This document shows positions 14,813-31,249 of a stretch of DNA of 64,000 nucleotides, piece after piece. The position numbers and the translations under genes were made by a program. The DNA comes from an uncultured Polyangiaceae bacterium (lineage in GTDB: Bacteria > Acidobacteriota > Thermoanaerobaculia > Multivoradales > JAHEKO01). The DNA lies in assembly GCA_964195975.1 (NCBI GenBank), contig CAXMQZ010000037.1:23721-87720 (forward strand), written 5' to 3'. The number at the start of each line of letters is the position of its first letter. Positions within the stretch are counted from its first letter, which is position 1. Below the pieces are notes generated by a model. That model was not told the DNA's origin and ran no database searches. It worked only from the letters and a program-made list of their open reading frames with translations.

Positions 14813-14814
14813 GG

Positions 14815-15306: not shown

Positions 15307-15316
15307 GCGAGATCGA

Positions 15317-15784
15317 TCAGATAGCAGTTTCGCTGCTGTTTTCCGACGCGACGATTTTGTCCGCAATAGAGGTTGGGATCGCTATCGGGCGTAGGCCCTC
15401 CGGATCGTCCATGACGCAGCAAACCGATGCTGTCTGACCACGCGCGATGAGTTCCCCGTCGACTGTGAAGGTGATCTCGTAGCTCATCGATCGGCGGCCT
15501 ACTTTGAGTATCTGGACCCGAATCTCCAGGACGTCGCCAAGTCGTGCCGGACGGAAGTACTGACACTTGGCCTCCACCCGAGGCCACCCGATATGAAGTC
15601 CATCGATCTCCATATGGACTTCGGCACCCAGGACGCGGAGAAGCTCGTGCTCGGCGGTCTCCATGAAGACGAAGAAACGGGAGAAGTGAACGATCCCGCC
15701 CATGTCGGTGTCGGCAAATTCGACTCTACGGGACGTGTGGATCTCCGATACAGGAAATACGACATCTCGATCGGAATCAGGCAT
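15317..15784 (-). CDS. YbgC/4HBT-family acyl-CoA thioesterase (hotdog fold); start at internal Met (MPDSDRD...)
   Basis: C-terminal 155 aa ...VVFPVSEIHTSRRVEFADTDMGGIVHFSRFFVFMETAEHELL... resembles YbgC-type thioesterases. The upstream 67 codons of the ORF are Arg/Ser-rich and overlap the GT4 gene, so the internal ATG is used. Its start overlaps the GT4 stop (ATGCCTGA). Confidence 0.55.
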   Translation of the reverse strand: MPDSDRDVVFPVSEIHTSRRVEFADTDMGGIVHFSRFFVFMETAEHELLRVLGAEVHMEIDGLHIGWPRVEAKCQYFRPARLGDVLEIRVQILKVGRRSMSYEITFTVDGELIARGQTASVCCVMDDPEGLRPIAIPTSIADKIVASENSSETAI

Positions 15785-17093
15785 GAATAGCCCCCTCCTT
15801 GCTACGGCTGAGAATGTGCTCGTAGACCGCGAGAGTACGGCGGGCCATCGCTTCAGCGTTGTAGATCTGCTCGACTGCACGTCGTCCCTGCTTCCCGAGC
15901 TCGAACCTCTGGAATTGATTGTCCCCGAGCTCGCGAATCGTCTCGGCCAGGGCCTCGCTGGAATTTGGCTGAACGAGGAGGCCACCTCCCGAATTCTCGA
16001 TCAGCTCGGTGAAGGCGCCATGATTTGGCTGGACCACCGGTGTGGAAGCGGCCCAGGCTTCGAGGACAAACAGACCCTTCGGCTCCCGGTAGGTCGTCGG
16101 GACGGACAAAATATCGATATCGTGCAGCATCGCAATCTTCTGGGCTCGGTCGACCTCGCCGAGACTCTCGACGCTACCGTCGGCGATCCAGGGAGACAGT
16201 TTGCTGAGCTGCTCCTCGAAATAGACTTTGTCTCTGCTGCTCAGATAGCCAGCCAGCTTGAGCTTGAAGCGTTCGCCGCCGGGTTCCCGCTTGATCTGGT
16301 CGAAGGCATCGCAAAGAAGATGCAGTCCTTTTTCCGGACACAGCCGAGCGAGGTACCCGATGGTTACCGTGTCGAGATCGGTCTCGGTCTCTTCGGCTAC
16401 TTCGAAGTCGTCCAGGTGGATTCCCAGAGGTACGACTTGAATCCGTTCTGATGGCACTTGGAGTAGCCTCGTCATTTCCGAGGCGTAGTAGCGACTCGTA
16501 GCGACAAAGCCATCGATCTGATTTGCGTGAGCAACCATCTCGCGATGGACTCCGCGACGAAAATCGTCGGTCAATTCGGCGAGGTAGAGATCTTCCCCGG
16601 TAAGCCCACAAACCACAGGAACATCGAGCTCCTGTCGAATTGCGCCGCCGATGCCAAGAAACATGGCGTTGGTAATTTGAACCAGATCCGGTTTGAAAGT
16701 CTCCACAAACTCGAGCAACCGATGCAATTCCTTCTGCTGATACCCATCCTCTGCTTGTAGCACCGATAGAGTGAGGGCTCCGAGCAACCCGGCATCGGTC
16801 GAGCCGGCAAATCGAGACACCCAGCGGAGTAAACCTGGGCGGTCGAGGAGCCTGTCGAGAAAGCGAGGCGACCGCCTGAATAGTGAAGATTTCTGTTGCA
16901 GATAGACGTTGACCGCTCCGTAGAAGACCGGTTCGAGGCTGACGTCCTTCTCATCAGTTTTCATCGGTGTATAGGTCGGGATGAGAGCGACATCATGGCC
17001 TTTGTCGATCAAGGCCGAGGCAAGAGTGTTGTCATGTAGACAACTCCCGCAATACATACCGGCCGCGCCGGCGGCTATGTAGGCAATCTTCAC
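15777..17093 (-). CDS. Glycosyltransferase family 4 (GT-B, group 1)
   Basis: 438 aa. The EX7E region ...EPKGLFVLEAWAASTPVV is present. An N-terminal Rossmann-like domain is present. Confidence 0.8.
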   Translation of the reverse strand: MKIAYIAAGAAGMYCGSCLHDNTLASALIDKGHDVALIPTYTPMKTDEKDVSLEPVFYGAVNVYLQQKSSLFRRSPRFLDRLLDRPGLLRWVSRFAGSTDAGLLGALTLSVLQAEDGYQQKELHRLLEFVETFKPDLVQITNAMFLGIGGAIRQELDVPVVCGLTGEDLYLAELTDDFRRGVHREMVAHANQIDGFVATSRYYASEMTRLLQVPSERIQVVPLGIHLDDFEVAEETETDLDTVTIGYLARLCPEKGLHLLCDAFDQIKREPGGERFKLKLAGYLSSRDKVYFEEQLSKLSPWIADGSVESLGEVDRAQKIAMLHDIDILSVPTTYREPKGLFVLEAWAASTPVVQPNHGAFTELIENSGGGLLVQPNSSEALAETIRELGDNQFQRFELGKQGRRAVEQIYNAEAMARRTLAVYEHILSRSKEGAIHA

Positions 17094-18568
17094 GATTTGG
17101 ACTTCGTCTCAGTCAATCCGTCTGAGAAAAACCTGTTCACCACTCGAGGTTCTGGCTTCGGGCTCAAAAGCGATCCCACAATCATCGCGACAATCGCGGC
17201 CGCGAGTATGACAGCCACGGGCATAATCCCTGTACTCGCAACGGTGTAGCCGGGAGTGGCCCAGGCTTGGGACAGGAAATAGGTCCAGAGGACTGCGACG
17301 GTCAAAAGGACCGCCCAGGCTCCTTGTTTGGTGCTTCGTCGCCAGTACAGGGCCGCGACTACGATCGGAAAGAGGGAGGCGAAACCGGTAAACGACCAAA
17401 TACCAAGACGAAAAATACTCCGGTTTGAGACGAGCGAAAGCAAGTAGGTAGCCACCAGGAGCGCTACCACGAACCAGCGGCCTGTTCGTACGACACTTCG
17501 TTCTTCCGCTCCCTCGGTGGAAGCATGTCTCTTCACGATGTCCTGAGTGAAGAGTGTGCTGAGCGATAGGATTTGCGAGTCCAATGACGACATCACGGCT
17601 GCAAAAACACCTGCACCGAGCAGTCCCGCGAGCACTTTTGGGGCGAACTCCGAAATCATACGCAAGAGAACGGCATTGGAGGCTGGACCTTGTAGGTCAG
17701 GTACTGCGGCGCTTCCGGCTACGCCCAGAAGCACGCTGGGCACCCAAACGATGGCGATGCAGATTGGGTAGGCCACGATCGCGAGCTTGAACGTTTCTAC
17801 TCGCTGGGCGGTGAGCCAGTGCATGAAAATGTGGGGAAACATTCCGATCGACAGAGGTATGAATGTATAGCTGATCAATGTAGTGGCCGGGATCCTGCTG
17901 CCGTGCATCAACAAGGCTGGATCGACGCTCTTCAGGGCGCCATCGAGACCGCCCAGGTGACGAAAGATGATGACAACGGAAACGGCACCCAGAGTCATGA
18001 AAACCAGTGCCTGGAGTGTGTTGGCCCATGAGGTCGATCGGACACCCCCAACGACGACATAGATTGCTACGACAAGACATATCAGCAGGCTGCCGAGCCA
18101 TTGCGGCACCAAACCGTCGGTGATCGCTTCGAAGGTAATACCGGCTCCCATGACACCGATGAGGAGGTAGGGAACCAAGAGGGCGACAAGCAGTACGAAG
18201 AGTCCGACCCCTAGGCTTGGAGAATCCCATCGCTCGCGAAAAAACTGAACTTGGGTCACGAAACCGTGACGTTTTCCGAGTACCCACAGGCGCGTACCGA
18301 CAAACATAAACACGACTGGCACGACGAAGGCGGAGCTCGAGGCCATCAGGCTAAATACTCCGATTCCCTGGTGATAAGCCTCGCCCGAAGCTCCTAGCAT
18401 GGCAAAGGCGGTCATGTGAGTGCCAAACAGAGTCATCAGGAGCACAAATGGACCGATGGTCCGACTTGCCAGGAAGTAGTCCTCGCCGGTGCCACGGAAG
18501 AGACGATGGCCGAGCAATCCGACGCTCAAGACGAGGACGAGATAGAGAACGAGAACTGCGAGAGTCAT
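17090..18568 (-). CDS. Sodium:solute symporter family (SSS) transporter
   Basis: 492 aa polytopic protein with SSS-like topology. A DUF3311-like small partner sits immediately upstream with a 4-nt overlap. Confidence 0.8.
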   Translation of the reverse strand: MTLAVLVLYLVLVLSVGLLGHRLFRGTGEDYFLASRTIGPFVLLMTLFGTHMTAFAMLGASGEAYHQGIGVFSLMASSSAFVVPVVFMFVGTRLWVLGKRHGFVTQVQFFRERWDSPSLGVGLFVLLVALLVPYLLIGVMGAGITFEAITDGLVPQWLGSLLICLVVAIYVVVGGVRSTSWANTLQALVFMTLGAVSVVIIFRHLGGLDGALKSVDPALLMHGSRIPATTLISYTFIPLSIGMFPHIFMHWLTAQRVETFKLAIVAYPICIAIVWVPSVLLGVAGSAAVPDLQGPASNAVLLRMISEFAPKVLAGLLGAGVFAAVMSSLDSQILSLSTLFTQDIVKRHASTEGAEERSVVRTGRWFVVALLVATYLLSLVSNRSIFRLGIWSFTGFASLFPIVVAALYWRRSTKQGAWAVLLTVAVLWTYFLSQAWATPGYTVASTGIMPVAVILAAAIVAMIVGSLLSPKPEPRVVNRFFSDGLTETKSKS

Positions 18569-18768
18569 CGATCGGCCGGTTCTGTGGCACCCAGGCGCCG
18601 GACCAAAAAGGCCATGGCGAGGGAGATCAAAAGACAGTAGCCGATATGATAGGCGAGACCGACAGGGATTCCACCTAGTACGGTGTCATATCTCCGCCAG
18701 AGCCAGAAATCGTTGTGAAGGAGGTAGAGCACCGCCAACATGAACGCAACAGTGAGACTTCTATTCAA
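18565..18768 (-). CDS. DUF3311-like small membrane protein (SSS-transporter partner; YhdT-like)
   Basis: 67 aa with two TM helices. ATGA overlap with the symporter gene. YhdT/PanF-like small subunits typically sit upstream of SSS transporters. Confidence 0.5.
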   Translation of the reverse strand: MNRSLTVAFMLAVLYLLHNDFWLWRRYDTVLGGIPVGLAYHIGYCLLISLAMAFLVRRLGATEPADR

Positions 18769-20030
18769 GACGTGGTCTCCGCCGCTGCCATCTGGGAAGT
18801 TGGCGAAACGGTCTCATCGAGCCCCTTGAGAAGGTCGTCCACCGGTCGGGTGAAGACATGCCCCATCAGTAGATCGACAAGTTGTCCCTTGCACTCAGGG
18901 TAGCGTCTCAAGAATTTTGAAAAACTGAAATCGGGATCGTAGAAAGCGGATACCAGCTTGCGCATCGCTTCGGCACCTCTTCTGAGCTCAGGCTCGAAAG
19001 CACGAAGCTTGTCGATATCGATCTCGGGCTCGGACAGAGCCGCGCAGATACATTCGGCAGCCATCGCGCCTGACTTGAGAGCGAGAAACACACCCGTGGA
19101 ATATATGGGATCGACAAAACCCCCTGCGTCGCCGACTAGGACCCAACTGTCACCAACCATGGACTCGACACTGTAGGAATAGTCCTTGGCTACCAAAACG
19201 GGTCGGGCCTGTCGCGCACCCTCGAGCCGTGGACTCAAGGCGGGGCACCGTTCCAGCTGGAGTTGGAAAACACTCTGTGGATCTCCGTTGGCCCCTCGTG
19301 CCAGGTAGTCGACAGGGCCTACCACCCCTACACTGACTCGATCGTCGGGTAGTGGGATGAACCAGAACCACGCCTTGTGGTCGGTCGTGTGGAGAATGAG
19401 GGTCGCCCCGGCATCGCGCCCGCAATCACGTTGCGCCCCTTCGAAATGAGTGTAGTAGGCGGCATGGCGTAGGGTGGGATCTGGAACCAGGAGCTCGAGC
19501 TGCCGAGCAAGGAGGGCTCTTTGACCGGTTGCATCTACAACGATTCGGGCGTCGAGCTCTCCTACGGTCCCGAATTCGTCTTCGAAGCGAACACCTGTGA
19601 TCCGATCATCCTTCTCCAGATAGCGTTTCGCCCAACAACCTCGTCGGATTTCTGCGCCTCTTGTTGCTGCCTGATTGATAAGCATTTGGTCGAAGCGGCT
19701 TCGCAACACTTGCCAGGTCCGTGAGCTCTCTACCGGATCGTGATCCTCGAAATAGAACGGTGTCGTTGCTTTGCCGTTGCCGGCAAAGAACTGGACACTA
19801 CCCTTGACTGGAAATGAGCTCGTTTTCATAGTCTCGAGAACTCCCAGCTTCTGAAAAATCTGATAACAGGCCGGCATCAGAGACTCACCTATGCTAAAGG
19901 TGGGCTGAGAAGAGCGTTCCAATACGACAACTCGGTAGCCTTGCTGAGCAACAAGATTTGCAACCGTGGCGCCTCCAGGACCGCCTCCGACAACGATTAC
20001 GTCATAGTTTTCGTGTGCTTCGATGGCCAT
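18765..20030 (-). CDS. FAD-dependent oxidoreductase of the flavin-dependent halogenase family (tryptophan-halogenase-like)
   Basis: GxGxxG VVGGGPGGA, GDAGGFVDPIYSTG and the halogenase signature WxWxIP (KAWFWFIPLPDD) are present. Confidence 0.65.
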   Translation of the reverse strand: MAIEAHENYDVIVVGGGPGGATVANLVAQQGYRVVVLERSSQPTFSIGESLMPACYQIFQKLGVLETMKTSSFPVKGSVQFFAGNGKATTPFYFEDHDPVESSRTWQVLRSRFDQMLINQAATRGAEIRRGCWAKRYLEKDDRITGVRFEDEFGTVGELDARIVVDATGQRALLARQLELLVPDPTLRHAAYYTHFEGAQRDCGRDAGATLILHTTDHKAWFWFIPLPDDRVSVGVVGPVDYLARGANGDPQSVFQLQLERCPALSPRLEGARQARPVLVAKDYSYSVESMVGDSWVLVGDAGGFVDPIYSTGVFLALKSGAMAAECICAALSEPEIDIDKLRAFEPELRRGAEAMRKLVSAFYDPDFSFSKFLRRYPECKGQLVDLLMGHVFTRPVDDLLKGLDETVSPTSQMAAAETTS

Positions 20031-20032
20031 GG

Positions 20033-22243
20033 TCAGAATTTGTACTGTAGCCCGAGAATCGCGGAGAAGGGGCGGCCCGGTATGACGGAGAAGCCGCCGA
20101 AACCTCTGGTTTCGTACTCGGTGTCGGCGACATTATCCAGATTCAGCGACAGACGCCAATCACCAAGCACATAGGCGGCAACCAGGTCCAGAAGCGCATA
20201 ATCATCAAGCTCTGTTTCGTTGTCCTCGGCAATAAATTGATTGCCGACATAGCGAATACCCCCGCCCACGGTGAGTCCGCTGTCAAACTTCTGCGTCATC
20301 CAGAGCTTGGCCAGATGCTCGGGTGAAAAGGTGCTTCTGTTACCTGACCGATCCACCGTTACAAAGGCTGGAGGAAACGTGGGGATCACTACAGTCTCTG
20401 CAAATCTCGTGAGCTCTGAGACCGAGTAGGCGTAGGAAAAGAGGCCGGTCAAGCCGCTGCTCAGATGCGCTGTGACCTCGAGCTCGATCCCTCGAGACCG
20501 TTGATCACCAGACTGTTGAGTAAATCCATTATCGTCCGGGATCGCGATGTTCTCGCGCTCGAGCTCATACAAAGCGATTGTCAGACGAGCACGTCCGTCG
20601 AACAGTTCGTTCCGAATGCCGACTTCGATCTCTTGACTCTCTTCGGCGCTGCGTTCTCCGACGACCCTGGGGGAAGGTGGGGCGAAGGCGCGCGAAAAGT
20701 TGCCGTACAGCGAGATCCTCTCGGTGGGTCGATAGACCGCTCCGAACATCGGACTGACCTGACCGTCGTTACGTGAAGTATCTGTCACGTCGTCCTCGAA
20801 ATCGATCGAGTCGTAGCGGGCGCCCAGAAGTAGTTGGAATTTGGAGTTGAAGGCCATCTCGTCGATGGCGTAGGGAGCGATAACTCGAGTCTGAGAGTTC
20901 CCCGACGCCGATACATTCGGCAGCTGAAAGAGAGGCTCCATCGCTGTCTCGATCGGATCGTTTATCGATATCGGCGGCAGCAGTGCCACATCGAGCCCAT
21001 AGATGTCGTCAAATCGCGACAGCTCGATCCCAGTCAGCAATCTGTGTCGAATTGGACCTGTTTGCGCCATGAGCACGGTCTCGAATTGATTGCCAAAAAA
21101 GTCCTGCTTGTCATCGAGCTGGAGCAGAGACCGTGTGACCAGGTCTGCGGATGGCACTTGGCCTGGAATCACGAAGCCCAGTAATGTGCCATCGGTATCC
21201 CAGTCGAGCTGCCGGAAGTAGGTCTTGTTTCGAATCGCGAACGTTTCCGAGAAGCGATGCTCGACATCCACTTGGCCCCGATGAATTTTTTGTTGGGAGA
21301 AATCGAAGGGAGATCCATAGGAGGTCTCTCGATCGACCTCCGATCGATCCAGAGCGGTGACAGGAATGCCTGCGTCTGGGCTGTAGTCGGAGTCGACGTA
21401 TTCGTAATTCACATTCAGAGTCGTGTTCGGGCCCGGTCTCCACGAAAAAGCTGGATTGAGAGCCCCCGTGCTGCCCTCGGTGTTGTCTCGGTAGCCGTCG
21501 GTGTCTCGATAGAGACCGTTGAACCGGAATGCGAACTCGCCGTTTTCCGAGGCACGGTTGATGTCTAGAGCCCCCTCGTAGGTGCTAAAACTTCCGGCCG
21601 AACCTGAAAAAGTTCCAAAGTTGGCCAGGGCGGGCTGTTTGCGCACAATGTTGACCGCTGCAGCAAGTGGGTTCGGACCGTACAAGAATCCAGCGGGCCC
21701 CTTGAGCATCTCGATTCGTTCAGTGTTGTAGAGCTGGTAGAAGGTGACTTCTGGCTCGGGCGCTCCATCAGTAAGAATCAGACTACTCGACAGCGAGTCG
21801 AATCCACGAACCACGAAGAAGTCGAAAACGCCCGAACCAGTCTGTGGGTTCACGCCACTGATGTTTTCTAGCGCATCTCCCAATACGATCGAGTTCTGCT
21901 CTTGCATCAGAGCTTTGCTGACCGCACCTACGTTGAATGGTGTCCAAACCAGATCGATCGGAAGCTTGGTCGAAATGGTATTCGATGAAGGGATCAGCGG
22001 CATTGGCGCTTCCACAACCACTGTCTCCTTCTGAGTCGCTACGGGCTCGTCCTCGGAGATGTTCCCGGAATCCTGATTCTCGGGAGCGATCTCGGCCGCA
22101 TCGGCCTCAACGGCACTTGCGAGAACCGAGTTGGCGAAAAGGACGCCGACTAGCGTACAGGTAACCAGAATCCTCAACAGGGATCCTGGTCCTCTGTAAA
22201 TACTCTGCGGAGATGATTCTGGGTTCATGATTTTTCTCTTCAA
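20033..22243 (-). CDS. TonB-dependent outer-membrane receptor
   Basis: 736 aa. N-terminal signal peptide, plug/barrel architecture, C-terminal ...LGLQYKF terminal aromatic. Its start lies 3 nt from the stop of the halogenase-like gene. Confidence 0.85.
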   Translation of the reverse strand: MKRKIMNPESSPQSIYRGPGSLLRILVTCTLVGVLFANSVLASAVEADAAEIAPENQDSGNISEDEPVATQKETVVVEAPMPLIPSSNTISTKLPIDLVWTPFNVGAVSKALMQEQNSIVLGDALENISGVNPQTGSGVFDFFVVRGFDSLSSSLILTDGAPEPEVTFYQLYNTERIEMLKGPAGFLYGPNPLAAAVNIVRKQPALANFGTFSGSAGSFSTYEGALDINRASENGEFAFRFNGLYRDTDGYRDNTEGSTGALNPAFSWRPGPNTTLNVNYEYVDSDYSPDAGIPVTALDRSEVDRETSYGSPFDFSQQKIHRGQVDVEHRFSETFAIRNKTYFRQLDWDTDGTLLGFVIPGQVPSADLVTRSLLQLDDKQDFFGNQFETVLMAQTGPIRHRLLTGIELSRFDDIYGLDVALLPPISINDPIETAMEPLFQLPNVSASGNSQTRVIAPYAIDEMAFNSKFQLLLGARYDSIDFEDDVTDTSRNDGQVSPMFGAVYRPTERISLYGNFSRAFAPPSPRVVGERSAEESQEIEVGIRNELFDGRARLTIALYELERENIAIPDDNGFTQQSGDQRSRGIELEVTAHLSSGLTGLFSYAYSVSELTRFAETVVIPTFPPAFVTVDRSGNRSTFSPEHLAKLWMTQKFDSGLTVGGGIRYVGNQFIAEDNETELDDYALLDLVAAYVLGDWRLSLNLDNVADTEYETRGFGGFSVIPGRPFSAILGLQYKF

Positions 22244-22282
22244 ACGGCTGAATAGCCCGGGAGGTACGGTGGTTGTGGTGGA

Positions 22283-23614
22283 TTAGGTGTATCTTCCGCC
22301 GCGGTGCTCTGGGTCATAGAACTCTGGCAGCAGCGTATCGACCCGGAGGAGCCCTTTTGTAGTCAGACAAATCTGGTCTCCGTCGACATACAACATCCCT
22401 CGGCTCTCAAAGCTGCGAAGCTGATCGGAGAAAGCATCGACAACATCGACGTCGAACTTGGAAGTGAAGTATTCGGCGTTCACACGACCAAGCTTGAGTT
22501 GCAGAATCAGCTCACGAATAAGCTGCTCTCTTGCGGAGGTCGAATAGGCCCGTGCTATCGGCAACTCAGGCACGTCGATCCGCGACAGATATTCACCCCA
22601 ACTGTCGACATTCTGAAAGTGGACTCCGCCGATGTGCGAAAACGAGGCTACTCCTGTGCCCAGCAAGTCGCATCCATGCCAGACCGAATCGCGATAAACA
22701 AAGCGGGCTCGCGCAGGGTCACGCACCATGGTGTAGGCGCTCGAGACCTGGTATCCGACCTTCGCCAGTTCCTGAAAGGCGTAGTCGTGCCAGGCTCGTT
22801 TGTCATCCCAGTCCGCCAGAGGTTGATCGAATGAGCCCTCGAGGATATTGCGCGAGTATCGGGTGTTGAAAGGCAGCTCCAACTGGTAGATGGTGACGCT
22901 GTCCGGTGCCAAGTCGACCGTTCTGGCCACCGAGTGGCGCCACGTATCCCAGGTTTCACCCACCATTCCCGCGATGAGATCGATATTGAGCTGATCGAAA
23001 TCGAGCTCATCGATCCAGGGGAGGCATCGGTCGATTTCCTTGGAGACGTGGGCACGCCCATTGGCGCTCAATATGGAGTCGTCAAAGCTCTCGATCCCGA
23101 GACTCAAGCGAGTTACACCGATGTCGCGAATTGCTTCCAGCTTGGAGCGAGTCAGAGTTCCCGGTTCGCACTCGAAAGTCACCTCTTCAACGCCAGTCCA
23201 GGGGATTGCTTCCTTGAGTCGAGCTGCCAAGGCTCGGAGGTGAGTGGAGCTTATGAACGACGGAGTTCCTCCTCCGAAATATACAAACTTGGGTTGTCTG
23301 TCGCGAATCGCGGTATGGGTGCTGAAAAGCTCGACTTCGGTAGCCAGGGCATCCAGGTAGCGACCAATCTCGTCGGAGCTCTTGTCGGTAAAGACCTTGA
23401 AGTAGCAGAATTTGCAGCGTTTGCGGCAAAACGGGATGTGGAGATAGAGACCGAAGTCTCTTGCAGTTTCTGGTTCGCGATCAAGGGCTTCAAGGGCCAC
23501 ATTCAGCCCATCATGGCGCCAATGGGAGTAGGGAGGATAATTCGACACGAAGACACTGCCGACCTCGGTCTCGGTGTGGGTAGGTGGCGTGGTCGCTGAC
23601 TCTGGTTGGCTCAT
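22283..23614 (-). CDS. Radical SAM enzyme of the HemN/HemW/HutW (coproporphyrinogen-III-oxidase-like) family
   Basis: CxxxCxxC as HIPFCRKRCKFCYF, followed by GGGTPS. Length 443 aa with a HemN C-terminal domain. Confidence 0.8.
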   Translation of the reverse strand: MSQPESATTPPTHTETEVGSVFVSNYPPYSHWRHDGLNVALEALDREPETARDFGLYLHIPFCRKRCKFCYFKVFTDKSSDEIGRYLDALATEVELFSTHTAIRDRQPKFVYFGGGTPSFISSTHLRALAARLKEAIPWTGVEEVTFECEPGTLTRSKLEAIRDIGVTRLSLGIESFDDSILSANGRAHVSKEIDRCLPWIDELDFDQLNIDLIAGMVGETWDTWRHSVARTVDLAPDSVTIYQLELPFNTRYSRNILEGSFDQPLADWDDKRAWHDYAFQELAKVGYQVSSAYTMVRDPARARFVYRDSVWHGCDLLGTGVASFSHIGGVHFQNVDSWGEYLSRIDVPELPIARAYSTSAREQLIRELILQLKLGRVNAEYFTSKFDVDVVDAFSDQLRSFESRGMLYVDGDQICLTTKGLLRVDTLLPEFYDPEHRGGRYT

Positions 23615-24738
23615 AATTTACGTACCGGTTCTGCGAAAGCGAAGAGAGTACCATCGACCGTGCCTATTATCAGATATCCCGCCGCGACGCTGGGCGAGGC
23701 GGTCATTGACTCGCCGGTGTCGAAGTTCCATACGACGGAACCGGTCTCCAGGTTTAGAGCCAGGAGCTGGCCGGCCTGGGTTGCGATGAATACTCGATCC
23801 CCTACAATTACGGGGGAAGAGTCAATCCGGTCGCCGGTTGTGTACGTCCATCGGATCTCTCCGGTCTTGGGGTTCAGGGCGTACACGTTCTTGTCGCGGC
23901 CACCGAGGACAGCCAGCTGCTGCGTAACTGCAGCCGAGGCGTAGAAGGGAAAGTCTCGTTCGGGATTGTCGTAGGTCCAGGCCAATTCGCCTTTCGCCAG
24001 ATCGATCCCCAGAATCTGGCTCTCGAAGTTGCCAACTACCGAGATATTTCCTACAACAGCTGAGCTAGCCCCTACATACCCGCCGAGAGATATTCGCTTG
24101 ATCTCCTGACCGTCGTTCAACCGCACGACCCGAAGATATCCGTCGCACCCAGCCGAGATTGCGTTCTGTTGCCAGATTGCGGGGGTCGCGTTTACATAGC
24201 CCTCGGTTTCAAGCCTCCAGCGCAGCTCTCCCGACTCGGGATCTAGGCAGTAGAGGTAGTTGTCATAGGAGCCAAAGAGCAGGCATCCGCTGCCGAGATT
24301 AGGCGAGGAGGTAATTCCAGCGTCGGTCTCGAAAACCCATTTTTTTGTGCCTGAGGTGGCGTCCAGGGCGTGGAGGAGTCCTGATTCGTTGCCAAAGAAG
24401 ATGGTGCCGTCGGACACCAGGGGTGAAGATTTGATTTCTGAATCGCTCTCGAATCGCCATCGCTCTCGGCCTGAGCGCAGATCCAACGCCCAGAGCGTTC
24501 CGTCCATGTCACCGGTGTAGACGCTGTTGCCAGAGATTGCGACTGTGGCTTCGAAACCGGACTCATCGTGAAAGACCCAGCGAGGCGCGAGATCTTCAGG
24601 CAGGTTGCTTTCGGTAAACCCGCTGAGCTGAGGGTTGTGGCGGAAACTGGCCCAGTCGCCTTCATTGCCGTGCTGAGCCTCGTCGGCAATCACCGAGTGG
24701 GCAGGACCCCCAAGGATGATGAGAGCCAATGTGAGCAT
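23611..24738 (-). CDS. PQQ-repeat beta-propeller protein (BamB-like), secreted; start at internal Met MLTLALIILGG
   Basis: Repeated ...G.l.AlD..tG...W modules (WALDLRSGRERW, LHALDATSGTKKW, LYCLDPESGELRW, VYALNPKTGEIRW, LLALNLETGSVVW). Confidence 0.7.
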   Translation of the reverse strand: MLTLALIILGGPAHSVIADEAQHGNEGDWASFRHNPQLSGFTESNLPEDLAPRWVFHDESGFEATVAISGNSVYTGDMDGTLWALDLRSGRERWRFESDSEIKSSPLVSDGTIFFGNESGLLHALDATSGTKKWVFETDAGITSSPNLGSGCLLFGSYDNYLYCLDPESGELRWRLETEGYVNATPAIWQQNAISAGCDGYLRVVRLNDGQEIKRISLGGYVGASSAVVGNISVVGNFESQILGIDLAKGELAWTYDNPERDFPFYASAAVTQQLAVLGGRDKNVYALNPKTGEIRWTYTTGDRIDSSPVIVGDRVFIATQAGQLLALNLETGSVVWNFDTGESMTASPSVAAGYLIIGTVDGTLFAFAEPVRKL

Positions 24739-24787
24739 CTTGAGGCTTTGCCTCGAGAGCAAGTATTGCCCACAGGTTTCGAGAAGG

Positions 24788-26002
24788 TCAGTATGCCGAT
24801 TCATAGATCTCGAAAAGCTCCGCCTGGCTCACGGGTCTGGGATTAAATCGTGCCGTCCACTCGAGGACGGCCGCCTCAGCCAGTGCTTCCAGATCCCCGC
24901 GCGAGACACCGAGATCGTGCAGGCTGTCCGGCAGCTCGAGAGTCTGACGAAGCTGCTCGATATAGGTAGCCAGGGTGTCTCCAGGTTCATCTTTTCGGTT
25001 CAGTCCGGCGAGGTCGTTTAGAGTTGAGTAGTCGTCGGCTACCACGCTGCTGTTAAAGCGGACGACATGCGGCAATAGAACACCAATAGCCTGTCCATGA
25101 GAAATTCCGTACGTCGCAGTCAATGGGTTTGCGCAGGCATGCGCGGCGCCGAGCATCGACTGCTCGATCGCGGCGCCCGCTAGGTGTGCCCCCAAGAGCA
25201 TCTCTCCTACATCTGCTAGGTCGGCTTCTTTCGACAGAGGCGATTGGAGGCTCGAATGGAGAAGCTCCCAGGCTCGCATCGACCAGACTCTCGAGATTGG
25301 GTTTCTACGTGTGCTGACATGACTTTCGATTGCATGGCTGAGGGCATCGATGCCGGCCGCGGCCGCCACTCGAGTGGGCGCGGAAGCGATCAATCCAGGA
25401 TCGAGGACCACTGTACGGAACAGGGCCTGCGGATCACCGCAGGCCATTTTGCGCCCCGATTCGGAGTCTGAGATCAGGGCAAACGACTGCGCTTCGCTGC
25501 CCGTTCCGGCGGTCGTCGGAATTCCGATCGAAGGCAACATTGAAGCATGGGTCTGGCCATAGCCCCAATAGTCGGTTATGGATCCGCCATTGGTGAGCAA
25601 GAAGTTGATGGCTTTGGCGCAGTCCATGCTACTGCCGCCGCCCAGTCCAACAATGCAGTCCGGCTCGAAGTCCGCAACCTGTCTCGCAGCGGCTTCTACC
25701 AGGTCGGTAGTAGGATTCTCGGTGGCACCATCATAAAGACGGACTTCAATCGAGCCTGTAGAGAGCGTTTCGAGTGCCCTTTGTACATGACCAGCCTGGT
25801 GCACCCCCTGGTCGGAAACGACCAGCACCCTCTTGGCGGCGAGATCCTCGACAATGGTTCCTAGCTCGCCTAGGCGACCCTCGCCAAAAAAAACCCGGAT
25901 AGCTCCCACATCGGCTTCCCAGTGGTACCGAGGACCGGTGCCGAGATAGCGGCTCCGCGCGGCCTCAGAATCGGTATCGAGACCGTTTCGTCGTTGTTTG
26001 TT
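24788..26002 (-). CDS. Iron-containing (group III) alcohol dehydrogenase; start at internal ATG 4 nt after the upstream stop (GAGG RBS)
   Basis: GGGSSMDCAK motif and ...RVLVVSDQGV.... The ORF-track N-terminal extension overlaps the upstream gene by 59 nt and is probably not translated. Confidence 0.8.
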   Translation of the reverse strand, partial: NKQRRNGLDTDSEAARSRYLGTGPRYHWEADVGAIRVFFGEGRLGELGTIVEDLAAKRVLVVSDQGVHQAGHVQRALETLSTGSIEVRLYDGATENPTTDLVEAAARQVADFEPDCIVGLGGGSSMDCAKAINFLLTNGGSITDYWGYGQTHASMLPSIGIPTTAGTGSEAQSFALISDSESGRKMACGDPQALFRTVVLDPGLIASAPTRVAAAAGIDALSHAIESHVSTRRNPISRVWSMRAWELLHSSLQSPLSKEADLADVGEMLLGAHLAGAAIEQSMLGAAHACANPLTATYGISHGQAIGVLLPHVVRFNSSVVADDYSTLNDLAGLNRKDEPGDTLATYIEQLRQTLELPDSLHDLGVSRGDLEALAEAAVLEWTARFNPRPVSQAELFEIYESAY

Positions 26003-26009
26003 CATTGCC

Positions 26010-27488
26010 TCAGACGCCGCCGCTCGCGGCTGAGTCGCCGACGTTTGTCGGCGACCCGCTGGATTCATGGGGTCCCTGAAGCGCTCTCTGACGGTAGAGA
26101 TGCTCGAACAGATTGCCTTCGTGCGGCTGATCCCAGGCGACTTCGCAGGTCGAGTAGGCGCCCAGGTTCAAGCGTTCGATGTTCGGTGCGGTCATCAACT
26201 CCTGTCGGAATTGGGGGTCCTCGGTGAGTGCGGTTACGACCAAGCTCGACCCCATGTTTTCGACGATGGCACTCTGTCTCATCTCGACTACTGTGACGAA
26301 AGGGAATAGGTATTCGGCCTTGGCCAGGGGGTGGTCTGGGTCGCTGCAATAGATCACGGTAGGCAGCAAGAAAGCGCAGCCATCTACGTGGGCGACACGA
26401 TCTCCGCGGCGAAGCTTGGAGGTAATGTCCTCGGCTCCCGGTTGTCGCAGCTGCGAATCGATCTGAGCCGACAAACGATCGGCGATCCGGGCGTCGGGAA
26501 AGGCCGCCAGCCGGGCGTCGGGGTCGTCGAGGGGGAGGGCCTGGATTTGGACCAGGCGCTCGGCCAGGGCTTCGGCTATCTCTCTGCCGGACTTCGCGGT
26601 CCAGACACCTGACGCGTTGATGCACGACCTACCACCGTTCTTGGCCACAGAATCAACCGTTAGATCGAGATACTCCTGCCAACGGTCCGCTCCATCCTCT
26701 CCCAAGATCACCTTGCTCCAGCCTGGGCCGTGAATTTGGACTCTCGGATCGCCTTCCCACGGCTCTACGGTTGCTCGGTCTCCGAACAGCATCGACCGAC
26801 CACATCGTAGAAGGATCTCACCGACCCCCGAGTAGTCTGTCGGGTAAAAACTGATGGCTTCGGGTGCGCAACCGGCCGCTAGAAACGACTGTGCTATCCG
26901 GAACGGGGACCACGGTTCACGGCTGCCAGGTTTGAGCACCAATGGGACTTTCAACGGGATGGCTGGAATCCAGAGCGAGTGAACTCCCGGTGAGTTGCTT
27001 GGCAGAATGACTCCGAGGGAGTCCGTTTCACGACGGAAGGAAAGACAGCGGCCTTCCTGTAGCGTCCACCCTTGATCTATGACCTCTGGCTCGATCCCCC
27101 TCGTCAGCCCACCCAAGACTGTCTCCATCTCGGCCATCACGAAACGGATCTTCTCCATATTCGATCGGACGAGCGCCTGTGGCATGCCGGTAGTCGAAGA
27201 AAGCTGCTCGACATAGAGATCGGGTGATTGAGACGATGTGCCGACTGGAAGCTCCGAGTCCATGAAGAATCCTGCCGCTTTGCGGCAGATTTCCAGGAGC
27301 TCTCTTGCGCTGAGACTTTCGAGTGCCTGCCTGTTGGATCGAGTCGATCCGAGATCTCGAGCTATCAGGCCCGAATTGGCCATGCTGACCTCAGCCACGA
27401 CGTCACCCGTTCGGACGTCTGTCAGGGAGTTGGTCGCAAGGCTCGTATAGGAGGTGCCTGCTCTGAGCAGCGGGATCTGGATCATCAA
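26010..27488 (-). CDS. Aldehyde-dehydrogenase-superfamily protein, LuxC-like acyl-CoA/acyl-protein reductase candidate
   Basis: 492 aa. ALDH-like core ...ILPSNSPGVHSLWIPAIPLKVPLVLKPGSREP... with a candidate catalytic Cys in NGGRSCINASG. It is paired with an adenylating enzyme immediately upstream. Confidence 0.5.
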   Translation of the reverse strand: MMIQIPLLRAGTSYTSLATNSLTDVRTGDVVAEVSMANSGLIARDLGSTRSNRQALESLSARELLEICRKAAGFFMDSELPVGTSSQSPDLYVEQLSSTTGMPQALVRSNMEKIRFVMAEMETVLGGLTRGIEPEVIDQGWTLQEGRCLSFRRETDSLGVILPSNSPGVHSLWIPAIPLKVPLVLKPGSREPWSPFRIAQSFLAAGCAPEAISFYPTDYSGVGEILLRCGRSMLFGDRATVEPWEGDPRVQIHGPGWSKVILGEDGADRWQEYLDLTVDSVAKNGGRSCINASGVWTAKSGREIAEALAERLVQIQALPLDDPDARLAAFPDARIADRLSAQIDSQLRQPGAEDITSKLRRGDRVAHVDGCAFLLPTVIYCSDPDHPLAKAEYLFPFVTVVEMRQSAIVENMGSSLVVTALTEDPQFRQELMTAPNIERLNLGAYSTCEVAWDQPHEGNLFEHLYRQRALQGPHESSGSPTNVGDSAASGGV

Positions 27489-28600
27489 TACACTCCAACC
27501 ACAACCGATTCTTCAAAACGGGAGAAGAGACGCAAGTTGCTGACACCGTCCCAAGGGTAGGGCTCGATCGGCTCGGCTCGCTCGCCCTCGTCTCGCTCCA
27601 GAAACCGAGGCATCAGAAACTCTTTGGTAAGAGTTGTCAGCATGACGCGGCCGGTCTGGCCATATGGGACCGTCTTGCCCGTGTCTTCAGGGTCGACCAA
27701 TTCAAAGACGGCTCGAGGCGAGGGCGGGTAGTAGGTGATCTTGTAGTCATCATGGCGGTCGAATGGCTTACAACAAGCCAAGCCCATAAGAGTATTTCCG
27801 TAGGTAGGGATGAAATCTACTCCTGGCACCAGCTCTTCACGTGCAAACCGGTGGAATTGAGCGTTCATCTCCGTGCCGCCACAGAAGATGCCGGTAATTC
27901 CCATCTTGGTGAGGGAGATTTTTTCGCAAACAGCTTCAAGCAGCTTTGGAGTCGTGAAAATGCAAGTGACGTTTTCATGGGATCTAAGAATCTTGAGTCC
28001 CTGGTCGACGATATGGTCCTTGTAGTCTTGGAGATCTTGATGACGGCCCAAACGGATCAACCGGTTTACCCAACGAGGGTCGAGATCGACATGAAAGGAA
28101 ACCCCACCCCGATGTTGAGCCAGATGTTCGATCGCCAATCTCAGCCGTCTTGGTCCGGTGGGTCCTAGCATCAGCCAATCGGCGCCAGATGGGAACGTAG
28201 TGCTGTCGAGGGTGTCACTGAACATCTCATAGTCGGTTTGGAAGTCCCGAATATTGATCCGTGACTTGGGAAGGCCGGTCGAGCCACCGGTTTCGAAGAC
28301 ATAGAGAGGCTCGTCTTGCAACGCCTTCGGCACCCATCTTCGAATCGGACCGCCACGGAGCCACTCGTCTTGAAAGTGTCCCAGAACCTTCAGATCGCCA
28401 TAGTTATGGATGACTTCCCGAGGGTCGAAATCTAGCTTGCCAGCAAAGTCGAGCCAGAAGGGACAACCTGTTTCCGGACCGAAATGCCAAAGAATCATCT
28501 CTCGTACATGCTCGTCGAGAGTCTTCTTTGCGGCCTCGATCCGAGTCTGGAGAGCCGTAGGATCCTTGTTCGTAGCGGGGTCACTGTGATGATCGGTCAT
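27485..28600 (-). CDS. LuxE/PaaK-like acyl-adenylate-forming enzyme (acyl-protein synthetase family candidate)
   Basis: 371 aa. The adenylation motif ETGGSTGLPK matches the (S/T)(S/G)G(S/T)TGxPK consensus. Its length fits LuxE rather than full ANL ligases. Confidence 0.5.
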   Translation of the reverse strand: MTDHHSDPATNKDPTALQTRIEAAKKTLDEHVREMILWHFGPETGCPFWLDFAGKLDFDPREVIHNYGDLKVLGHFQDEWLRGGPIRRWVPKALQDEPLYVFETGGSTGLPKSRINIRDFQTDYEMFSDTLDSTTFPSGADWLMLGPTGPRRLRLAIEHLAQHRGGVSFHVDLDPRWVNRLIRLGRHQDLQDYKDHIVDQGLKILRSHENVTCIFTTPKLLEAVCEKISLTKMGITGIFCGGTEMNAQFHRFAREELVPGVDFIPTYGNTLMGLACCKPFDRHDDYKITYYPPSPRAVFELVDPEDTGKTVPYGQTGRVMLTTLTKEFLMPRFLERDEGERAEPIEPYPWDGVSNLRLFSRFEESVVVGVY

Positions 28601-28687
28601 GGCGTGCAGAGTCCTCTAGTTTGAAATCCAAGATGCCAGTGTGATCACTGGGAGTGATTATTTCAAGCTGTGTGGCAGTTCCAGGGT

Positions 28688-30247: not shown

Positions 30248-30422
30248 TTTATGAGTGTAAATCTAGCAGACCGAGGCCTCGAGAGCTGGCGCGGAGCCCG
30301 TGATGTGACAAAACGGGTGGGTGAGATGCCTTTCACTGACCTGGGTGAGGACTTCGAGTAACATCCCACTTCTGAGAACGTGACAAGCAAGCCGACCGAC
30401 CGCGTCACTGAGAGCCCAGGCC

Positions 30423-31220: not shown

Positions 31221-31249
31221 CGCCGAAACTGCCATTTGACAAGGTTTTC

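Follow-up and report, generated by a model that had tools for sequence, protein, structure and literature searches.

The locus at 15317-28600 of the window (the whole stretch of DNA analyzed, 64,000 nucleotides) raises the question of whether eleven closely packed genes of diverse predicted function act together and, if they do, on what. We consider it highly probable that the run is a selected, functionally linked cluster. That it is a conserved operon-like unit spread over three compartments and acting on a small carboxylic acid, by way of aromatic-acid tailoring, is a more tentative reading, and the tailoring mechanism itself is held slightly more loosely still.

The earlier note had described eleven tightly packed genes on the minus strand (here G1 to G11, numbered downward from 28600), and this was borne out by the reading frames and their junctions. 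All eleven are co-directional, homologues were found for every one, and together they form the longest same-strand series in the window, elsewhere in which the strand flips every one to five genes. Spacing at the ten junctions runs from -17 to +39/54 nt, with 1-8-nt overlaps at five or six; most coordinates given previously held, with small corrections at three. At G1/G2, the minus-strand sequence TTGATG (27488-27483) gives a 4-nt overlap if the start is TTG 27488, or 1 nt (TGATG) if it is ATG 27485, the latter being seen in the gene calls of the related loci L002, L083, L084 and L085. The G2 stop at 26010 and the G3 ATG, which lies at 26005 rather than at 26002, are separated by a 4-nt spacer. 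The interval 24739-24787 between G3 and G4, formerly taken as a gap, is probably coding, since the G4 frame reaches ATG 24804 and overlaps G3 by 17 nt, an overlap (YATGAAxCxGCxTAYTGA) also present in L001, L084, L085 and L086. ATGA at 23614-23611 joins G4 to G5. The sole real intergenic gap of the run lies between G5 and G6, and measures 39 nt with TTG 22243, in agreement with the 22244-22282 reported before, or 54 nt with ATG 22228. A 2-nt spacer separates G6 from G7. The G7/G8 junction, given as a gap at 18765/18768, is not one if TTG 18768 is the start, as in the L084 gene call, since the genes then share TTGA. G8/G9 and G9/G10 meet at ATGA and GTGA, respectively, and G10 and G11 overlap by 8 nt (ATGCCTGA), with AAGGAGG upstream of ATG 15784.

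Inside the run neither promoter-like matches (5, against 6.6 expected in shuffled sequence) nor terminator-like matches (9, against 14.1) were in excess. The promoter or operator of the run is likely to reside in the 87 nt 5' of G1 (28601-28687, minus strand). This region contains a palindrome, ATCACTcccAGTGAT, at 28658-28644; it gave no sigma-70-like match, no stable structure (z = 0.01) and no Rfam match.

Comparative synteny had been put forward as a test of the unit, and gene order proved to be strongly conserved, in support of a functional unit. In GTDB species genomes at least 588 stretches, of 600 candidates listed, encode a relative, which makes the family widespread, and the order G1 to G11 recurs in L005, L008 and L042 (proteins 46-65% identical) and in L084. 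Among 82 related loci (Acidobacteriota, Poribacteria, Latescibacterota, KSB1), G4 adjoins G5 in 76. Counting only loci with enough flank, the 17 from Acidobacteriota keep, in the same order, G2 (14), G3 (16), G4 (15), G6 (14), G7 (14), G9 (12), G10 (15) and G11 (10). The 34 Poribacteria loci have G3 (33), G4 (33) and G7 (24). In this phylum G3-G4-G5 is linked without intervening genes to a ligase and a halogenase that form a pair, none of G6 and G9-G11 occurs, and some loci have no halogenase within 10 kb. In the 7 Latescibacterota loci G4-G5 is linked again, in a different arrangement, with G6, G7 and G9 (G4 7, G6 7, G7 6, G9 5). [quoted passage not shown]

The run is also modular. L085 and L086 have G1-G5 plus two extra propellers alone, the cluster ending there, and the core is joined by between one and three additional secreted propellers. 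Sister clusters replace or add a PaaK-like aryl-acid ligase, whose gene overlaps that of the halogenase, and have a binding protein of the TAXI-TRAP type in place of the transporter, and these exchanges suggest that carboxylate uptake is a constant need. In L001 and L002 an ABC ATPase and an 1100-aa FtsX/MacB permease directly follow the thioesterase; in the window such an ATPase and FtsX/MacB-type pair lies at 7952-12033, 3 kb downstream of the end of the run. Flanking genes are common only to the closest relatives, L083 and L084, and the sharing of both cluster and flanks by L084 (LeuRS 77% and G5 71% identical) fits vertical descent.

What, then, do the products do? All of the domain labels of the earlier note were reproduced by Pfam. 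G1 (27485-28600), of 371 aa, is predicted to be an adenylate-forming enzyme of the EhpF/GriC type and the first half of a two-component carboxylate reductase. Residues 29-371 align with residues 24-369 of the 369-residue chain of EhpF (PDB 3hgu; E 9e-42), and like this full-length homologue G1 is without the ANL C-terminal domain; Pfam AMP-binding scored 39.8 bits, and an A3-like motif, ETGGSTGLPK, was read in the sequence. Of its 371 positions, 200 show conservation of 93% or more in 17 homologues drawn from several phyla; identity across phyla was 72-75% in one comparison and 74-89% in another, and the top database matches (74-83% identical) are named, where at all, hypothetical protein or generically as PaaK-like or acyl-CoA synthetase. 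G2 (26010-27485) is a divergent ALDH-fold protein (Pfam Aldedh 43.6 bits) and the putative EhpG/GriD/LuxC-like partner of G1; the Cys of its motif NGGRSCiNAS, conserved in 28 homologues, is read from the motif, without alignment to a characterized ALDH, as probably catalytic. We thus assign G1/G2 provisionally as a two-component carboxylate reductase of the EhpF/EhpG (GriC/GriD) type. G3 (24788-26005) is a cytoplasmic, iron-containing group III alcohol dehydrogenase (Fe-ADH 160.7 bits, ADH_Fe_C 132.8 bits), with its best NCBIfam matches, ErcA and FucO, all under cut-off. Conservation across 61 homologues covers GGGSxMDxAK, DAlsHAiES, GAAHAcANPL and HGqA, of which the last three are read as probable metal-binding residues.

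No gene is more closely tied to G3 and G5 than G4 (23611-24804), and translational coupling to both is predicted from the 17-nt and ATGA overlaps. G4 encodes a Sec-exported, 8-blade PQQ-like/BamB-like beta-propeller (Beta-prop_ACSF4 249 bits, PQQ_2 140 bits). Most of the ~70 homologues with a readable N-terminus have a signal peptide with an AxA site before a conserved DWxSFRGN, and those with this Sec signal and AxA site have no lipobox; given this SPase-I type of signal, the protein is probably soluble in the periplasm. The protein labeled a PQQ propeller in the earlier note is better described as a secreted BamB-like scaffold and is not a quinoprotein dehydrogenase: its closest PDB entries are the designer 'Cake' propellers, 3hxj and BamB, and PQQ dehydrogenases match weakly. 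Conservation in G4 falls mainly on the Trp and Gly residues that recur in the blades of the scaffold, and on a GCD.

G5 (22283-23614; Pfam Radical_SAM and HemN_C) is a HemN-like, class C-type radical SAM enzyme of an uncharacterized subfamily. It matches HemN (1olt, E 2e-33) and NocN (E 1e-31) in the PDB and carries the cluster motif CRKRCKFC and GGGTP. No NCBIfam cut-off was reached (HutW 186.8 against 400 bits, STM4012 186.5, HemN 174 against 325, HemW 140.8 against 205). With 176 of 443 positions at least 93% conserved in 78 sequences, and 57-62% identity across phyla, G5 makes up a highly conserved subfamily of its own. Its GRAH presumably stands at the position of NRxQ in HemN, and its YRDSVW at what we take to be the position of RNFQGY in HemN and HNxxYW in HemW.

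The remaining genes encode a receptor, a halogenase, a transporter and two further enzymes. G6 (20033-22243; Plug and TonB_dep_Rec_b-barrel) is a TonB-dependent outer-membrane receptor of the siderophore-receptor subfamily, and alone clears a subfamily-level NCBIfam cut-off (TIGR01783, 276.1 against 223.5 bits); its best equivalog, Fiu, remained below cut-off (194 against 686 bits). G7 (18765-20030), by motifs and PDB matches, is a flavin-dependent halogenase of the phenol/pyrrole ('variant B') type. Its full-length matches are 8zop, CndH (3e1t), ChlB4, Mpy16, PltA and Bmp2 (E 8e-57 to 8e-45), its nearest relatives are phenol/pyrrole halogenases, and every flavin-dependent halogenase motif is retained and conserved in 44 homologues (GGGPGG, FPVKGS, WFWFIP, GDAGGFVDP), the Lys of FPVKGS aligning to CndH FPIKRG. 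G8 (18565-18768) is a 67-aa small membrane protein, a DUF3311-like symporter accessory subunit (26.6 bits, just below the cut-off of 30); L084 has a 63-aa frame at its position, and tblastn matches of 54-62% were found in L008, L030 and L083. G9 (17090-18568) is an inner-membrane transporter of the sodium:solute symporter family (SSF 148.8 bits), under cut-off for NCBIfam PanF, PutP and MctP. G10 (15777-17093) is a GT4 glycosyltransferase of GT-B fold by four Pfam families (Glycos_transf_1, Glyco_trans_1_4, Glyco_transf_4, Glyco_trans_4_4), with only generic GT4 enzymes as PDB matches. G11 (15317-15784), scanned with Pfam only, is a hot-dog fold thioesterase of the YbgC/4HBT type (4HBT_2 51.6 bits, 4HBT 50.6 bits) in which the motif FADTDMGGIVHF was read. 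No NCBIfam equivalog cut-off was reached by G1-G7, G9 or G10.

The observations comprise which genes are present, their conserved order, their catalytic motifs and where in the cell each product resides; what class of substrate is acted on, in which sequence the steps occur, which way flux runs and what G4 does are inferred from these. The substrate itself is purely inferred, given that G1-G5, G7, G9 and G10 matched no NCBIfam equivalog, and is most probably an electron-rich aromatic (phenolic, catecholic or pyrrolic) acid. Our best guess, held tentatively, is that an aromatic carboxylate is taken up and is reduced, given a C1 unit, halogenated and glycosylated. The acid or its iron complex would enter through the receptor G6 in the outer membrane and the symporter G8/G9 in the inner one, G7 would halogenate the ring with FADH2, O2 and halide, and G1 would adenylate the carboxylate, the acyl group being reduced to the aldehyde by G2 and the aldehyde to the alcohol by G3. 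G10 may then glycosylate a hydroxyl group, G11 may remove a thioester, and the secreted G4 could serve as a periplasmic binding or scaffold protein for the compound. These findings are consistent with the earlier proposal that a lipid or an aromatic compound is taken up and tailored, and the aromatic option is the better supported, given the EhpF homology of G1, the halogenase type of G7, the YbgC/4HBT type of G11 and the PaaK-like ligase of the sister clusters. Several points, the modularity of the run among them, count against the scheme. Its transporters all import, an uncommon trait in a biosynthetic cluster; vertical inheritance and the very high conservation of G1 and G5 across phyla would suit central or cofactor metabolism better than a strain-specific natural product; and we know of no role for a BamB-like propeller in small-molecule metabolism.

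It was also reasonable to consider that G1-G5 are self-contained and that G6-G9 and G10-G11 are separate functions packed behind them, with one promoter possibly reading through all three. The minimal L085 and L086 clusters, the Poribacteria loci without G6 and G9-G11, and the position of the only real gap, just before G6, favor this, but we consider it unlikely: Acidobacteriota hold the modules together in order down to 46-60% protein identity while the flanks change, and the linkages found in Latescibacterota and Poribacteria are repeated and independent, which argues for shared function. Uptake followed by catabolism or assimilation of an exogenous compound would make use of the fact that all transporters in and around the clusters (TonB-dependent receptor, SSS symporter, TAXI-TRAP) are importers. 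The secreted propellers would bind or process the compound outside the cytoplasm, G3, G2 and G1 would run oxidatively from alcohol to aldehyde, acid and activated acid, and G5 would carry out an oxygen-independent radical step. An Fe-ADH, an ALDH and an acid-activating enzyme form a classic degradative series, and the best NCBIfam match of G5 is to ChuW/HutW, the only known catabolic HemN-like enzyme. On the other hand, that match is far under cut-off, GT4 glycosyltransferases are anabolic, EhpF/GriC-type enzymes without the C-terminal domain are known only from reductive, ATP-consuming carboxylate reduction, and G7 retains all its halogenating motifs in a family for which we know of no catabolic role; this explanation we regard as distinctly unlikely.

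An envelope lipid pathway of the LuxCDE type seemed quite improbable. In it G11 would free a fatty acid, G1/G2 would reduce it to the aldehyde and G3 to the fatty alcohol, G5 and G7 would modify the chain, G10 would yield an alkyl glycoside or glycolipid, and delivery of the product to the outer membrane would be left to a MacB/DevCA-like ABC exporter together with the periplasmic propellers. G1/G2 can be read nearly as readily as a LuxE/LuxC-like pair working on a fatty acid; in size (371 and 491 aa) and fold they correspond to LuxE and LuxC, and the thioesterase, the GT4 and the ABC pairs are in keeping with it. However, no LuxE or LuxC Pfam match appeared even at E = 1, whereas EhpF, an enzyme with an aromatic diacid as substrate, matches at E 9e-42; phenols and pyrroles are the substrates of the closest relatives of G7, Poribacteria and minimal versions are without thioesterase, GT4 and ABC pair, and a siderophore-type receptor and symporter have no place in such a scheme. 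Very improbable, finally, is cofactor maturation, in which the G4 propeller, or some other exported protein, would be modified by G5 and G7 prior to leaving the cytoplasm, or G1-G3 and G5 would make a small cofactor bound by the secreted propellers, by analogy with QhpD/QhpG and PQQ. The G4-G5 linkage, the tightest of all, the additional propellers beside the core, and sub-threshold matches of G7 to the Trp-modifying maturases QhpG (143.6 bits), LodB and GoxB speak for it; but the G4 signal peptides are Sec-type and not twin-arginine, G7 carries the halogenase WxWxIP and Lys motifs, conservation in G4 is mostly that of its scaffold, and to our knowledge no HemN-like enzyme modifies a folded protein.

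For aromatic-acid tailoring, the reading we favor, no characterized pathway matching the run was found, and it contains no gene for a scaffold-forming enzyme, a carrier protein, a flavin reductase or an exporter; parts of it do resemble known systems. LuxCDE fatty acid reductase shares the logic of thioesterase, adenylating synthetase and ALDH-fold reductase at similar protein sizes, but LuxD is an alpha/beta hydrolase whereas G11 has a hot-dog fold, and the run has no luciferase. BamB and 3hxj are the natural structures nearest to G4 by sequence and are similar in size; the BamB NCBIfam model gave 156 bits against a cut-off of 285, and the genetic coupling of G4 is to cytoplasmic enzymes rather than to BAM genes. 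The variant-B halogenases CndH, PltA, Bmp2, Mpy16 and ChlB4 share FAD motifs, catalytic Lys and WxWxIP with G7, but most take carrier-protein-bound substrates, and no carrier protein gene was found in the run or between ligase and halogenase in sister loci. CxxxCxxC, GGGTP and HemN_C are common to G5 and the HemN-like class C set (HemN, HemW, ChuW/HutW, NosN/NocN, TbtI, C10P, Jaw5), members of which, in roles other than haem synthesis, use two-SAM chemistry to pass a methylene group derived from SAM to sp2 carbons (PMC6050322).

The closest parallel to G1/G2 is ehpF/ehpG, neighboring AMP-binding and ALDH-family genes in phenazine operons (PMC11278526). EhpF of the Pantoea phenazine pathway aligns with G1 end to end, both without the ANL C-terminal domain. 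In the run an ALDH-fold gene with a conserved Cys follows G1 with stop and start overlapping, and the two genes are ordered like ehpF-ehpG. GriC/GriD of the Streptomyces grixazone pathway is, like EhpF/EhpG, an ATP- and NAD(P)H-dependent two-component aryl carboxylate reductase, converting 3-amino-4-hydroxybenzoate to the aldehyde via the acyl-AMP (PMC10179220). Unlike both, the run has no phenazine or 3,4-AHBA biosynthetic gene nearby, and conservation of the G1 family across phyla is far above that expected of a natural-product tailoring enzyme. Related clusters, compared here by description, are the putative biosynthetic clusters of the 'Halo_AMP' pseudoclass from sponge microbiomes, which come from Acidobacteriota, Latescibacterota and Poribacteria, phyla shared with relatives of the run; their halogenases point to Bmp2 and their ligases to phenylacetate-CoA ligases, and they are uncharacterized, with no MIBiG match or assigned product (Loureiro et al., bioRxiv 10.64898/2026.08.03.742642). 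Their detection rule places the two core domains within 5 kb, whereas in the run they are 7.4 kb apart, and their focus cluster CC A has P450s, of which the run has none. Beyond that preprint, the present analysis adds the Fe-ADH-propeller-HemN core, the putative EhpF/EhpG assignment and a distribution outside sponges.

The eleven-gene minus-strand run that the earlier note had proposed was confirmed by listing the ORFs and reading each junction in the sequence; it extends from 28600 to 15317 and is the longest same-strand block of the window. The domain labels given to its genes (G1 to G11 in order of transcription) were reproduced by Pfam, and sharper assignments were drawn from motifs and from matches to solved structures, which suffice to settle the folds. 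The ten junctions span -17 to +39/54 nt, with overlaps of 1-8 nt in five or six of them. At the G1/G2 junction, TTGATG, the stop codon of G1 overlaps either a TTG or an ATG start, and the 1-nt TGATG form appears in the gene calls of four relatives. The short spacer reported between G2 and G3 does exist (4 nt), but the start of G3 is the ATG at 26005 and not at 26002. ATGA overlaps join G4 to G5 and G8 to G9, a GTGA overlap joins G9 to G10, and the G7/G8 overlap is TTGA provided that the TTG at 18768 is the start. G6 and G7 are separated by 2 nt, and G10 and G11 share an 8-nt overlap, ATGCCTGA, with AAGGAGG ahead of it.

The interval 24739-24787, previously taken for a gap, is most likely coding, with the G4 frame open to an ATG at 24804, so that G3 and G4 share the final 17 nt of G3. 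This overlap (24788-24804 in the window) was also found in four related loci from other genomes, at 8863-8879 in L001, 8832-8848 in L084, 13721-13737 in L085 and 14525-14541 in L086, and its sequence, YATGAAxCxGCxTAYTGA, is of constant length and nearly identical in its letters across phyla, the same bases encoding the last residues of G3 (YE[SA]AY-stop) and the first of G4 (M[KN][RPL]..). The sole true gap of the run is the 39-54 nt ahead of the receptor gene G6.

Scans of the run for promoter and terminator consensus sites gave matches no commoner than in shuffled sequence, although the sigma-70 and intrinsic-terminator models may not suit this phylum, and neither 14000-31500 nor any of seven related loci gave a credible Rfam match to a riboswitch or other RNA. 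The 87 nt that precede G1 showed no significant fold (z = 0.01), no stable predicted RNA structure and no promoter-like match; they contain a palindrome, ATCACTcccAGTGAT, at 28644-28658, which is a possible operator. No E. coli-type Fur box was present in the run, the best matches in the window (13-14 of 19 positions) lying elsewhere, and this consensus is a weak test for the phylum. The junctions of the run in the window leave no room for a hidden precursor peptide or carrier protein gene.

G1 (27485-28600, minus strand, 371 aa) is a homologue of EhpF, and its alignment with the EhpF structure 3hgu (E 9e-42) extends to the C-terminal end of each protein (371 and 369 aa, respectively); like EhpF, G1 is an ANL adenylating enzyme without the C-terminal domain. 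G2, which overlaps G1 by 1 nt, is a divergent ALDH-fold protein (Pfam Aldedh, 43.6 bits) with a motif, NGGRSCiNAS, that is kept in 28 homologues and by motif reading holds the putative catalytic Cys. An EhpF-like ANL N-domain enzyme with an adjacent ALDH-fold partner is what characterizes the EhpF/EhpG-GriC/GriD group, to which we provisionally assign the pair. In phenazine operons ehpF and ehpG are adjacent, in an arrangement identical to that of G1 and G2 (PMC11278526), and GriC/GriD convert 3-amino-4-hydroxybenzoate to the aldehyde via an acyl-AMP (PMC10179220).

Across phyla the identity of G1 is 72-75%, as against 46-52% for G3, G4 and G7 in the same genome pairs, and given how uneven the per-gene identities are within those pairs, the high values reflect constraint rather than recent block transfer. 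Database matches to G1 from KSB1, Thermoanaerobaculia and Poribacteria (proteins P0123-P0242) are 74-89% identical, and 200 of its 371 positions are nearly invariant, making it far more conserved than the neighbouring genes. The named matches carry only the label 'hypothetical protein' or generic PaaK-like or acyl-CoA-synthetase labels, and this absence of specific names, taken with the conservation, points to a selected pathway that is so far unassigned.

G3 is an iron-type alcohol dehydrogenase in which the nucleotide motif and, by motif reading, the putative metal-binding motifs are conserved. G4 is a PQQ-like eight-blade propeller with a mature protein of about 355 aa. Most G4 homologues with a readable N-terminus show a Sec signal peptide with an AxA site just ahead of a conserved DWxSFRGN, and most lack a lipobox Cys, features that predict a soluble periplasmic protein. 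PQQ-dependent dehydrogenases are eight-blade quinoproteins of about 550-600 aa that score above the TIGR03075/03074 cut-offs, and G4 was rejected as one (89.5 vs 480 and 48.8 vs 833 bits, respectively); its matches to PDB quinoproteins reached 30-60 bits and covered single blades only. BamB was rejected as well (TIGR03300, 156.5 vs 285.2 bits; an AxA site without Cys). The CxxCH haem motif is absent from G4 and from the larger propellers of L084 and L085. Two extra Sec-exported PQQ-like propellers (about 730-750 and 480-500 aa) lie upstream of G1 in many relatives (L084, 1415-5097; L085, 6284-9969; L086, 4982-8742; L002, 1543-5221); they are missing from the window, where an MltF-like gene (28688-30247) abuts G1.

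G5 carries the CxxxCxxC motif of radical SAM enzymes as CRKRCKFC (PF04055, 72.9 bits) together with a HemN_C domain (PF06969, 30.1 bits) and matches the HemN and NocN structures, which places it in the HemN-like superfamily (class C type). The NCBIfam equivalogs HemN, HemW, HutW-ChuW and STM4012 were each rejected (174 vs 325, 140.8 vs 205, 186.8 vs 400 and 186.5 vs 380 bits, respectively). The subfamily formed by G5 and its relatives is extremely conserved, with 176 of 443 positions at least 93% conserved over 78 sequences. An exact look-up of the G5 protein of the window gave no record, and the nearest homologues of G5 come from Acidobacteriota, chiefly Thermoanaerobaculia MAGs. Radical C1 transfer is documented for non-haem HemN-like enzymes (PMC6050322).

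The receptor G6, with plug and barrel, exceeds the cut-off for TonB-dependent siderophore receptors (TIGR01783, 276.1 vs 223.5 bits) and reaches no specific equivalog (Fiu, 194 vs 686 bits); none of the ten proteins scanned passes an NCBIfam equivalog cut-off, G6 alone passing at the subfamily level. Haem uptake with ChuW-type degradation was considered and rejected, the receptor being of siderophore rather than haem type (70.7 vs 316.9 bits) and G5 falling far under the HutW cut-off. G7 aligns over its full length with phenol/pyrrole-type flavin-dependent halogenases, and its motifs GGGPGG, FPVKGS (with the catalytic Lys, aligned to FPIKRG of CndH), WFWFIP and GDAGGFVDP, kept in 44 homologues, correspond to the set GxGxxG, Lys, WxWxIP and GDAxxFxDP expected of a flavin-dependent halogenase, which G7 is thus predicted to be; no flavin reductase gene was recognised within the run. 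G8 is a small membrane protein resembling DUF3311, G9 is a sodium:solute symporter, and Pfam assigns G10 to the GT4 glycosyltransferases and G11 to the YbgC/4HBT-type hot-dog thioesterases.

Several neighbouring genes deserve mention. A second hot-dog ORF (14815-15306, plus strand, 163 aa, CFGCGPSN, weak score) converges on G11 with 10 nt between the stop codons, and is conserved with leuS in L084. An ABC ATPase (232 aa) and a MacB/FtsX-type permease (1132 aa) occupy 7952-12033 on the minus strand; in L001 and L002 such a pair directly follows the thioesterase of the cluster on the same strand, and in the window leuS and the small hot-dog gene lie between it and G11 on the other strand. This pair is a possible candidate for the missing exporter. 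On the plus strand, 11 kb past the end of the run, 1094-4024 encodes a TRAP binding protein of the TAXI type together with a fused DctQM permease. This binding protein shares 68% identity with one that adjoins receptor and radical SAM genes in L025, and is of the same family as one found after the halogenase in Poribacteria.

When one genome per species was scanned, at least 588 of 600 candidate stretches held relatives, and the best 80 of these belong to Acidobacteriota, Poribacteria, Latescibacterota, KSB1 and unclassified MAGs. We searched the related loci by tblastn with all eleven window proteins and grouped them by the taxon in the record titles. In 76 of 82 loci G4 immediately precedes G5, and 64 of the 82 contain G3. 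Among the 17 acidobacterial loci with enough flank, G2 is present in 14, G3 in 16, G4 in 15, G6 in 14, G7 in 14, G9 in 12, G10 in 15 and G11 in 10, in the same order. The 34 comparable loci of Poribacteria hold G3 (33), G4 (33) and G7 (24), and G6, G9, G10 and G11 in none, and the seven of Latescibacterota hold G4 (7), G6 (7), G7 (6) and G9 (5) in a different arrangement. L084, the nearest of the relatives that are fully resolved, shares all eleven genes as well as the flanks (the MltF-like gene upstream, the small hot-dog gene and leuS downstream), and its identities to the window (77% for LeuRS, 71% for G5) fit vertical descent. The flanking genes are common only to the window, L083 and L084, and the full order was found in L005, L008 and L042 at protein identities of 46-65%. 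Synteny, which the earlier note had named as a check on its operon, is therefore conserved in Acidobacteriota down to 46-60% identity, beyond the conservation of the flanks, and the comparative data bear out an operon call made from sequence alone.

G3-G4-G5 form an invariant core to which the G1/G2 reductase is usually added, and the minimal form of the cluster (L085 and L086) consists of the two larger secreted propellers and G1-G5, with nothing else. Clustering of all ORFs in the loci revealed two further recurrent partners, namely a PaaK-like aryl-acid ligase, whose gene overlaps that of the halogenase in Latescibacterota and in Poribacteria comes after the radical SAM gene, and a TAXI-TRAP binding protein encoded immediately after the halogenase. 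A halogenase, an acid-activating enzyme and an importer are a frequent add-on to the core, the type of importer (receptor and symporter versus TAXI-TRAP) varying by phylum. The glycosyltransferase and thioesterase are largely acidobacterial additions, with a GT4 homologue also in single Latescibacterota and unclassified loci. In Poribacteria the ligase and halogenase are 21-5461 nt apart, with variable insertions and no conserved small gene. PIN-like, DUF488, helicase or giant TPR genes are inserted there in L039, L044, L045, L050, L057, L070, L077 and L080, and the cluster seems to be an insertion hotspot in this phylum. Eight Poribacteria loci (e.g. L056, L060 and L066) have, by sequence reading, a 2-oxoacid:ferredoxin oxidoreductase alpha/beta pair upstream of the Fe-ADH, and two CBS-domain-looking proteins and a DppA-like peptidase ahead of the core on the same strand; these genes may link the core to 2-oxoacid or aryl-acid metabolism.

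We class the run as a conserved accessory-metabolism operon or putative biosynthetic cluster. It behaves as a selected functional unit that is also modular, and synteny supports a single, probably co-expressed unit combining uptake and tailoring; that it is a set of juxtaposed modules is an alternative we keep alive. What fits best is the uptake and tailoring of an electron-rich aromatic carboxylic acid, given that importers are recurrent and interchangeable, that adenylating enzymes of two aryl-acid kinds occur, that the halogenase is of the phenol/pyrrole type, that the thioesterase comes from the hydroxybenzoyl-CoA thioesterase superfamily, and that the receptor is of a siderophore (catecholate-like) type. 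The acid would be halogenated, modified by radical C1 transfer in analogy to non-haem HemN-like enzymes, reduced through the aldehyde to the alcohol and glycosylated, and binding or presentation of the compound in the periplasm would fall to the secreted propeller. The substrate, the order of the steps and the direction of flux are what we infer from the observed gene content, order, motifs and localisation, and uptake followed by catabolism is a second live alternative.

The run contains no scaffold synthase, carrier protein, flavin reductase or exporter, which together with vertical inheritance and very strong conservation argues against a classical biosynthetic cluster and leaves these alternatives, and two others, in contention. 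In one, the genes form a LuxCDE-like lipid or glycolipid pathway, a reading favored by the ABC/FtsX pair after the thioesterase in L001 and L002, but neither LuxE (PF04443) nor LuxC (PF05893) gave a Pfam match at E up to 1, on which ground we rejected a LuxCDE assignment of G1 and G2. In the other, the product is a cofactor bound to the propellers. We consider it rather unlikely that the core makes or recycles a widely shared periplasmic small molecule, cofactor-like or a redox-shuttle aryl alcohol/aldehyde, that is propeller-bound, with the halogenase, receptor, symporter, glycosyltransferase and thioesterase added in particular lineages; the core would then be a new part of the near-central metabolism of Acidobacteriota, Poribacteria, Latescibacterota and KSB1 and not a strain-specific natural product. 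More generally, the core may represent unassigned metabolism common to several candidate phyla.

There is nothing out of the ordinary in the operon call, but the cluster is widespread and uncharacterised, and its conservation is unusual. The phyla that carry it abound in sediments, soils and marine sponges and are almost entirely uncultured. The predicted activities of the run would join chemistries that are separately valuable, namely ATP-dependent carboxylate reduction, radical C1 transfer and enzymatic halogenation, and a role for a secreted propeller in small-molecule metabolism would be new. If halogenated aromatics are the product, the cluster is a candidate for the origin of orphan organohalogens found in sponges and sediments; should the core make a cofactor-like compound common to these phyla, it would fill a gap in their physiology.

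We found no characterised pathway in the literature that unites these parts, and only one paper, a preprint from 2026, in which a HemN-like enzyme and a halogenase are connected with these phyla. In that work sponge metagenomes were mined for pairs of halogenase and AMP-binding genes, termed Halo_AMP, in which PQQ-like, radical SAM, TonB, glycosyltransferase and thioesterase genes are frequent, the phyla are the same and no product is known (Loureiro et al., bioRxiv 10.64898/2026.08.03.742642). The G3-G4-G5 core, the EhpF/EhpG assignment, the periplasmic location of the propeller and the occurrence outside sponges are not described for Halo_AMP, and the family highlighted there has P450s, whereas the window run has none. 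The Halo_AMP rule calls for Trp_halogenase and AMP-binding Pfam domains within 5 kb; both are present in the window, but 7.4 kb apart (G7 end 20030, G1 start 27485), so that this rule would miss the window; the sister loci with a PaaK-like ligase beside the halogenase would come closer to it.
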